From an uncultured Pseudomonadota bacterium (GTDB lineage: Bacteria; Pseudomonadota; Alphaproteobacteria; RF32; CAG-239), in NCBI GenBank assembly GCA_902494875.1, contig CABUUO010000002.1, positions 32,547 through 96,546 on the forward strand: a DNA stretch of 64,000 nucleotides, given 5' to 3'. Below are positions 48,539 through 49,050 of this stretch, one piece after another. The notes under the pieces were generated by a model that saw only the letters and a list, made by a program, of their open reading frames with translations, was not told the DNA's origin and did not search any database. Every line of letters begins with the position of its first letter. Position 1 is the stretch's first letter. Both the position numbers and the translations under genes were made by a program.

Positions 48539-48614
48539 GGGGTTATAGCTCAGCTGGGAGAGCGCTTGAATGGCATTCAAGAGGTCAGGAGTTCGATCCT
48601 CCTTAGCTCCACCA
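48539..48614 (+). tRNA. tRNA-Ala (anticodon GGC)
   Basis: GGGGTTATAGCTCAGCTGGGAGAGC, a G3:U70 identity pair, anticodon loop ATGGCAT, with CCA encoded. Confidence 0.85.
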
Positions 48615-48620
48615 ATTCCT

Positions 48621-48648
48621 AAAGCACCGCCAAGCGCGGTGCTTTTTT
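48621..48648 (+). terminator. Terminator between the two tRNA-Ala genes
   Basis: gcaccgc-caa-gcgcggtgc followed by TTTTTT. Confidence 0.5.
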
Positions 48649-48654
48649 ACAAAC

Positions 48655-48730
48655 GGGGTCATAGCTCAGTTGGGAGAGCGATTGGTTCGCAATCAATAGG
48701 TCGGGAGTTCGATCCTCCCTGGCTCCACCA
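48655..48730 (+). tRNA. tRNA-Ala (anticodon CGC)
   Basis: GGGGTCATAGCTCAGTTGGGAGAGC, G3:U70, anticodon loop TTCGCAA, with CCA encoded. Confidence 0.8.
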
Positions 48731-48837
48731 ATTTTTCAAAAGCACTGTTTCTTTCGGCAGTGCTTTTTTGTCAGCCGCTCAAACTTCGCTTAACGCTCGT
48801 TTTCCCGGGGGAGGATCACTTCGGCATCTAATTGCGC
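48717..48837 (+). repeat. Direct repeat copy 1: the last 14 nt of tRNA-Ala(CGC) plus 107 bp of downstream flank, including the terminator hairpin
   Basis: It is about 97% identical to 48929-49050 (2-3 differences). The two copies are separated by a 91 bp spacer. Confidence 0.8.
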
Positions 48838-48928
48838 CGTCATTGCTTTTGCAATCCCGTCTCAATAAGATGTTACGAAGAACTGGCAGAACCCAAACAC
48901 CATACACAGGTGTTTGGGTCTTAGCGTT

Positions 48929-49050
48929 CCCTGGCTCCACCAATTTTTTAAAAGCACTGTTTCTTTCGGCAGTGCTTTTTTTGTCAGCCGCTCAAACTTC
49001 GCTTAACGCTCGTTTTCCCGGGGGAGGATCTCTTCGGCATCTAATTGCGC
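48929..49050 (+). repeat. Direct repeat copy 2: a duplicated tRNA-Ala 3' end (ccctggctccacca) plus flank
   Basis: Tandem duplicate of 48717-48837. It has the shape of an att site generated by site-specific integration into a tRNA gene. Confidence 0.8.

Follow-up and report, generated by a model that had tools for sequence, protein, structure and literature searches.

The window analyzed here, the whole stretch of 64 kb, carries a pair of tandem alanine tRNA genes, tRNA-Ala(GGC) and tRNA-Ala(CGC), which both ARAGORN and Rfam place 40 nt apart, just as the preliminary description of this DNA had it. A good sigma-70-like match was found by consensus scan upstream of the pair and may serve as its promoter (Table 1), and an intrinsic-terminator hairpin with a T-run closes the operon. 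The end of the operon is present twice. The repeated block, called A, consists of the last 15 nt of tRNA-Ala(CGC) (TCCCTGGCTCCACCA) together with 107 nt of native 3' flank, and its left edge lies within the 3' strand of the T-stem. In the first copy (A1) the block is continuous with the tRNA gene; in the second (A2) a displaced 3' fragment of the tRNA is followed by the same flank and a second copy of the terminator, all in the same orientation and 3' of the intact gene, with positions 48716-48730 found again at 48928-48942. The copies are separated by a unique spacer, B, and A2 leads into another unique sequence, Y (TTATTTTATC...), which is found in all alleles and is unrelated to B. The layout of the window is tRNA-A-B-A-Y.

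Table 1. Features of the tRNA-Ala locus and of the neighboring tRNA-Arg locus, in window coordinates.
Feature	Position	Strand	Basis or remark
XRE/HTH_3 regulator gene	48152-48373	-	Pfam HTH_3, E=3e-13; neighbor, outside the repeat unit
Putative promoter, TTGACA-17-TATATT, 5' of the tRNA-Ala pair	48498-48526	+	consensus scan, 11/12; function predicted only
tRNA-Ala(GGC)	48539-48614	+	ARAGORN; Rfam tRNA, 61.1 bits
tRNA-Ala(CGC)	48655-48730	+	ARAGORN; Rfam tRNA, 63 bits
Repeat copy A1	48716-48837	+	repeat search
Intrinsic-terminator hairpin and T-run, in A1	48739-48769	+	MFE stem of 12 bp, then T6; z = -4.9
Imperfect 62-nt hairpin across the A1/B junction	48819-48880	+	ViennaRNA, -22.3 kcal/mol; z = -3.6 vs shuffles
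Spacer B, 90 nt of unique DNA, missing from one-copy alleles	48838-48927	+	
Perfect 11-bp hairpin within B (ACCCAAACACC / GGTGTTTGGGT)	48891-48919	+	z = -4.4
Repeat copy A2	48928-49050	+	repeat search
Second terminator copy, in A2	about 48951-48982	+	
Nitroreductase gene, right-hand neighbor	49154-49747	+	Pfam Nitroreductase; anchor for strain comparison
tRNA-Arg(ACG)	52141-52217	+	
Arg insert, 175 nt, no gene	52218-52392	+	
Decaying repeat of the 16-nt 3' end of tRNA-Arg(ACG), one mismatch	52393-52408	+	

The two copies of A measure 122 and 123 nt and differ by 2 substitutions and 1 indel, an identity of about 97.6% that agrees with the earlier estimate of ~97%. The repeat search returned them as two collinear segments, 48716-48769/48928-48981 (98%) and 48764-48837/48977-49050 (99%), shifted against one another by a 1-nt indel in the T-run. 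The preliminary description had counted 14 nt of tRNA in the repeat and 91 bp in the spacer. The repeat and its 107-nt flank are real and the spacer is indeed unique, but the repeat starts one base earlier, with 15 nt of tRNA, and the spacer is 90 nt long. Its placement of the terminator hairpin inside the repeat was borne out by hairpin folding, and the hairpin is contained in both A copies. TRF did not report the repeat in the window, where its 1.57 units fall below the threshold of the program. The tRNA-Ala(CGC) gene itself is intact in every allele: its 3' end is present in all of them, and its first 61 nt show no differences among all spanning alleles.

An open reading frame of 182 aa (48570-49118, + strand) traverses tRNA-Ala(CGC), both A copies and B and has no Pfam match. 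It is annotated as protein-coding in public assemblies (contig L002; 157 aa in contig L006) and is almost certainly spurious, a product of the repeats. Elsewhere in the window, an Rfam match to the rpsB leader/sRNA (RF01815, 44.3 bits) at 45374-45467 (- strand), 5' of the ribosomal protein S2 gene, represents expected housekeeping regulation, and a very large reading frame of 1562 aa at 54203-58891 (+ strand) has a faint Pfam hint (Wtap) in public annotation.

Spacer B begins CGTCATTGCTTTTGCAATCCCG... and ends ...GGTGTTTGGGTCTTAGCGT. No further copy was detected in the 64-kb window or in the loci of related species, and comparisons with A in either orientation, with Y and with the region upstream of the tRNAs gave no significant similarity; on these grounds B was rejected as a dispersed repeat or as a copy of local DNA. 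Because it is absent from the one-copy alleles described below and from the sister species (L023), and has no match elsewhere in the window, B behaves as an insertion rather than as a duplicated local segment. A plain tandem duplication does not fit the layout, since it would give A-B-A-B and what is seen is A-B-A. Among alleles of the species B is nearly constant; a variant shared by L013 and L015 differs from the B of the window at 4 positions, with two substitutions in the loop of the 11-bp hairpin, one at the first base of the stem and the 10-bp core (CCCAAACACC/GGTGTTTGGG) unchanged, a pattern that is not statistically significant.

Database searches with B gave little. Rfam returned nothing credible for B or for the Arg insert, even at E<=10, and for 48731-49050 at E<=10 there was again nothing credible, only the tRNAs passing. 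A known structured RNA in the spacer was accordingly set aside, the Rfam covariance models matching tRNAs only. Exact patterns of the B hairpin, of the left part of B and of the B/core junction had 0 matches in IMG/VR viral contigs, and BLAST of the A flank plus B against INPHARED phages and PLSDB plasmids gave no match. The GTDB representative genomes were searched with a 27-mer from the B hairpin only, and this 27-mer matched just the species' own representative MAG, which is assigned to uncultured gut Alphaproteobacteria and whose contig stops inside the second A copy.

To compare strains, loci were fetched from public assemblies using the nitroreductase gene and ParE variants as anchors. 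The window and L002 appear to be one and the same contig. When the 17 other contigs of the species were split at the 15-nt core, the architecture of the locus was found to be (A-B)n-A, with n = 0, 1 or 2. One A and no B occur in 8 contigs (L003, L004, L007, L016, L021, L156, L159 and L162), two A in 4 contigs besides the window (L001, L005, L013 and L014), and at least two A in 3 contigs, of which L015 and L157 have N gaps and L011 stops in the second copy. A single contig, L006, has three A; here TRF reports a period of 212, 2.6 copies and 99% matches. The range among strains is 1.0 to 2.6 units with a period of 212 nt. Many contigs stop within A or the tRNAs (L008-L011, L017-L020 and L158), as expected of short-read assemblies at a repeat. 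The preliminary description had proposed looking in related strains for a larger island between the repeats. None was present between the A copies in the 17 other contigs, a result to be read with the tendency of short-read metagenome assemblies to break at repeats, through which strains with a large island could have gone unseen.

By SNPs in the left flank the species falls into two clades ~2% apart, each of which has both one-copy and two-copy alleles. Over 2977 nt of left flank, a single SNP separates the two-copy contig L014 from the one-copy contig L021. Together with the mixture of alleles in both clades, this implies that copy number changed recently and more than once. The sequence of B is the same in both clades, apart from the L013/L015 variant, and B is therefore either older than the clade split or was exchanged between the clades. 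A 273/276-aa gene without a Pfam match just 3' of the nitroreductase gene (49795-50625, - strand) also differs between them: it is uncalled in clade II contigs (L013-L016, L021), where the nitroreductase gene and a 368-aa gene lie much too close together to leave room for it, so that its presence or absence is polymorphic between the clades.

The distribution of variants within A bears on how copies are gained and lost. Clade II alleles have the motif GGATACC in both A copies, clade I lacks it throughout, and L013 has a loop variant of its own in both copies; the A copies thus show concerted evolution within lineages. Two one-copy alleles carry A1-type variants well inside the block, GCCAGCC at 57 nt into A in L004 and a loop variant at 41 nt into A in L021. 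These fall 40-57 nt downstream of the tRNA end, and the crossovers they imply would lie downstream of the tRNA core. On these sequence patterns, homologous recombination along the whole 122-nt repeat is suggested in preference to core-specific excision. In L011 both copies are of the A1 type at the loop variant, which weakens the placement of the crossovers, and the placement depends on the alleles sampled in that unsampled parental alleles could account for the L004 and L021 variants.

Outside the species, only one flank is present, and B is missing, in the sister species represented by L023, whose ParE is 94% identical. Parts of the A flank, e.g. GCATCTAA, recur there at the same position by eye, and blastn-short of the A flank against L023 gave no significant match. 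Relatives of the topoisomerase IV subunit B (ParE) of the window are named 'Proteobacteria bacterium CAG:495' and 'Alphaproteobacteria bacterium' by their sources. More distant species, at 89-91% ParE identity, keep no synteny beyond the GNAT gene and are uninformative for the locus.

The preliminary description had also drawn attention to a regulator gene immediately upstream of the tRNAs. It is of the HTH_3/XRE type by Pfam, as proposed, but it is not part of the repeat unit. The gene lies on the 5' side of both tRNAs, overlaps the 3' end of the convergent GNAT gene and occurs with 1, 2 or 3 A copies. Its called length varies among strains (60, 64, 67, 70, 73 or 79 aa). It is uncalled in L162 and L163, with the ParE-to-tRNA distance of L162 being 132 nt shorter (L162 about 5500-5735), and the sister species L023 lacks it. 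Look-ups with the exact XRE protein of the window and with P0001 gave either the window's own contig alone or no hit. The gene is unstable, being truncated or partly deleted in some strains. A role as an element-borne repressor was rejected on its position outside the repeats on the 5' side and its failure to track copy number, and the gene is no evidence for a prophage at tRNA-Ala(CGC).

The boundary of block A does have a counterpart at an integrated element elsewhere. Metagenome contigs were scanned with the 28-nt 3' end of the tRNA, a sequence common to numerous unrelated environmental bacteria; the scan returned 120 loci, all from other organisms, and an extra copy of the core was present at 2 of these 120 matching tRNAs, a rough base rate. 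In one unrelated contig (L060, Ga0207864_1000195), a P4-type integrase with Arm-DNA-bind_3, Phage_int_M and Phage_integrase domains comes immediately after tRNA-Ala(CGC). Beyond the integrase lie capsid, portal and TerL genes, within a phage-like island of 10.6 kb (2270-12950) that terminates in the same 15 nt as block A with the same left boundary. The 15-nt block is the att repeat of this island, and L060, taken as a positive control, supports by analogy an integrase origin for the boundary of block A. The island is possibly a satellite or a small prophage. Its host looks GC-rich by eye, and CTGGGGGCAT repeats near both of its ends may be arm-type sites. When B and the Arg insert were compared with the att arms of L060, the sole result was a marginal 19-nt match of the Arg insert to the P' arm. 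Its score was reached by 9 of 500 shuffles, and the match is not relied on. In another metagenome contig (L040, 27-90), the 3' end of tRNA-Ala is duplicated just 21 nt downstream (CCTCCCTGGCTCCACCAATTACCTCCCTGGCTCCACCA), a micro-duplication of the same core.

The integrase search suggested earlier was run within the 64-kb window. No tyrosine recombinase was found there with the L060 integrase as phmmer query at E<=10, and Pfam assigned the integrase-sized reading frames of the window to housekeeping genes only. As for a parent element, none was found in the 17 other contigs or among viral contigs, phages and plasmids.

A similar arrangement lies 3.4 kb from the tRNA-Ala locus. At tRNA-Arg(ACG) a gene-less insert separates the tRNA from a copy of its own end (Table 1), and here too the repeat begins at the 3' strand of the T-stem. 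We regard 52141-52408 as a scar similar to the one at tRNA-Ala, and older: it is present in all strains examined, and its distal copy is visibly decaying. In the sister species L023, the corresponding stretch (10206-10560) has an insert homologous to the Arg insert and three copies of the tRNA-Arg end. Of these, one is intact, another has decayed, and the third belongs to a near-perfect repeat of 59 nt that takes in the terminator; two of the three copies lie in such a repeat. A conserved block of the Arg insert, used as an exact pattern, had 0 matches in viral contigs, and the insert gave no BLAST match to phages. Repeated insertions at tRNA 3' ends fit with integrase traffic in this lineage.

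On balance, we lean toward reading the tRNA-Ala locus as the decayed, integrase-less remnant of an att-flanked element that now evolves by homologous recombination as a low-copy tandem repeat of 212 bp. Its starting point would have been the insertion of an integrative element (phage, satellite or island) at the 3' end of tRNA-Ala(CGC) by means of a tyrosine integrase, leaving the regenerated tRNA end in A1 and the displaced 3' fragment in A2. The element would later have been almost wholly deleted, with 90 nt (B) and no gene remaining. Because the flanking copies share 122 nt, such a remnant could act as a tandem repeat, its A copies recombining homologously or slipping against one another; such events would remove the unit, to give one A and no B, would expand it, to give three A, and would homogenize the copies within lineages. 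The structure of the locus, its variation among strains, the uniqueness of B and the service of the 15-nt block as an att repeat in L060 are direct observations; we infer that an integrase made the original insertion, that the element was then deleted and that the copy changes of the present are RecA-type rather than integrase-driven. The idea of a scar left after loss of an element, put forward in the preliminary description, stands as far as the tRNA boundary is that of the L060 att repeat and B is strain-variable; an att site that is still active is a different matter, since nothing shows present activity and the variants point to homologous recombination over 122 nt. Simple slippage had been offered as the fallback should relatives have the same duplication with no polymorphic insertion and no integrase, and here the outcome is divided, the unit itself being a polymorphic insertion. 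Little or no phenotype is expected from the unit, because the tRNA is intact and each unit adds just one terminator copy 5' of the nitroreductase gene.

Against the remnant reading speak the failure to find a parent element or, in the window, an integrase, and the long identity of the copies, which continues for 107 nt beyond the tRNA in flank shared by the one-copy alleles. A minimal att core does not explain this identity; either the element brought host flank with it or the copies were converted later. Att identities of more than 100 bp are known for SLP1 and HP1. Direct repeats of 15-221 bp have been reported for Klebsiella tDNA islands (bioRxiv 10.1101/2020.11.02.365908), and the 122-nt repeat is long yet within this range. 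The shared flank counts in favor of a local rearrangement independent of any integrase, an account we consider rather unlikely, in which template switching or slippage prompted by the hairpin-forming T-arm and terminator would have duplicated the tRNA end with its flank and captured 90 nt of filler, later copy changes being ordinary repeat instability. Also in its favor, strong hairpins lie at the edges of the repeat or within it, neither an integrase nor a parent element turned up, and the present dynamics resemble homologous recombination. On the other hand, B matches nothing local, A-B-A is unlike the product of a tandem duplication, the left boundary is, to the base, that of the L060 att repeat at the same tRNA species, and the tRNA-Arg scar begins at the equivalent T-stem position.

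The 212-bp unit could also be a still-mobile, cis-mobilizable mini-element, excised, reintegrated and tandemly accreted by an integrase whose gene lies at another place in the genome or arrives with a different element. We judge this improbable: just 90 nt are left for both arm regions, at least some crossovers fall outside the tRNA core by the variant patterns, no second genomic site, dispersed copy or integrase in the window was found, and the 122-nt repeat suffices for RecA-dependent deletion and expansion without an integrase. It would nevertheless account for a unit that is absent or present, in 1, 2 or 3 copies, in near-isogenic backgrounds, that keeps attL-like and attR-like junctions and whose B is conserved in both clades, and accretion of the CIME type is known (PMC5704250). 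A broader version, to which we give slightly less credence still, holds that tRNA 3' ends in this lineage repeatedly take gene-less mini-insertions by which the tRNA end is duplicated along with its terminator (at Ala, and at Arg also in the sister species) and that the 212-bp unit is live, its integrase acting in trans. If that were true, the unit would be the smallest att-flanked unit still moved and accreted, an integrase-element counterpart of a MITE, and mobilization in trans would show how small an integrase-dependent element can be, a conclusion the evidence does not favor. Finally, the three-copy allele and some one-copy alleles could have been mis-resolved by the assemblers, which would count against the remnant reading, and the repeat or its copy-number variation might itself be a metagenome assembly artefact. 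Contigs break within A or the tRNAs as noted above, the L015 and L157 scaffolds have their N gaps in the second copy, and the count of identical units in L006 is uncheckable without reads. Even so, the repeat is no chance match and an artefact is very improbable, as A-B-A with copy-specific SNPs was recovered independently from at least 7 samples by different assemblers, among them k=141 MEGAHIT contigs (L001), where k exceeds the repeat length, and one-copy alleles also come from k=141 assemblies (L021, L162). The Logan contig L007 runs from the tRNA through a single A into the right flank, where, with a short k-mer, B in that sample should have produced a branch; Logan assemblies may use a short k-mer.

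The locus is of modest importance. Its repeat yields spurious genes in public assemblies and breaks short-read contigs, and its 1, 2 or 3 units offer an inexpensive way to tell strains of an uncultured gut species apart. The locus would also be a clean example of a tRNA integration scar that outlives its element and becomes a recombination-driven tandem repeat, and island finders that require an integrase, such as Islander (PMC4383910), would miss such a scar.

Islander maps islands by a regenerated tDNA and a displaced fragment, and lists a large class of att sites in the T-stem region (PMC4383910). The tRNA-Ala locus resembles the tRNA-integrated islands and prophages found in this way in its intact tRNA, its downstream copy in the same orientation, a repeat that starts from the T-stem 3' strand and foreign, strain-variable DNA between the repeats, and the same 15-nt block bounds the L060 island. 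It differs from them in the 90 nt between the repeats, which contain neither an integrase nor any other gene, in a repeat that runs 107 nt past the tRNA into host flank, and in that no full-length relative was found. CIMEs are decayed ICE/IME remnants that keep attL and attR and have lost the genes for integration and transfer, a recognized outcome of decay (PMC5704250). Like them, the locus would be an att-flanked remnant without recombination genes, and tandem arrays (A-B-A-B-A) resemble accretion products; measured against CIMEs, it has lost its genes and retained the core repeats, with the arm regions cut to 90 nt in total. In contrast to CIMEs, only these 90 nt, and no gene, lie between the repeats, and the copy changes look homologous rather than site-specific. 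Compared with VNTR-like tandem repeats, the locus shares head-to-tail units with a period of 212 nt, variable copy number and concerted evolution, whereas its B is foreign to the one-copy allele and one of its boundaries is fixed at an integrase sublocation of the tRNA. In the experimental system of mycobacteriophage Ms6, integration takes place at the T-loop/3' end of tRNA-Ala genes (PMC1762012). Host and phage are unrelated to those here; the use of the region from the tRNA-Ala T-loop to the 3' end as attB makes it a bona fide integrase target. Set beside these systems, the locus is an ordinary, well-documented case of a feature type already known rather than a new system.
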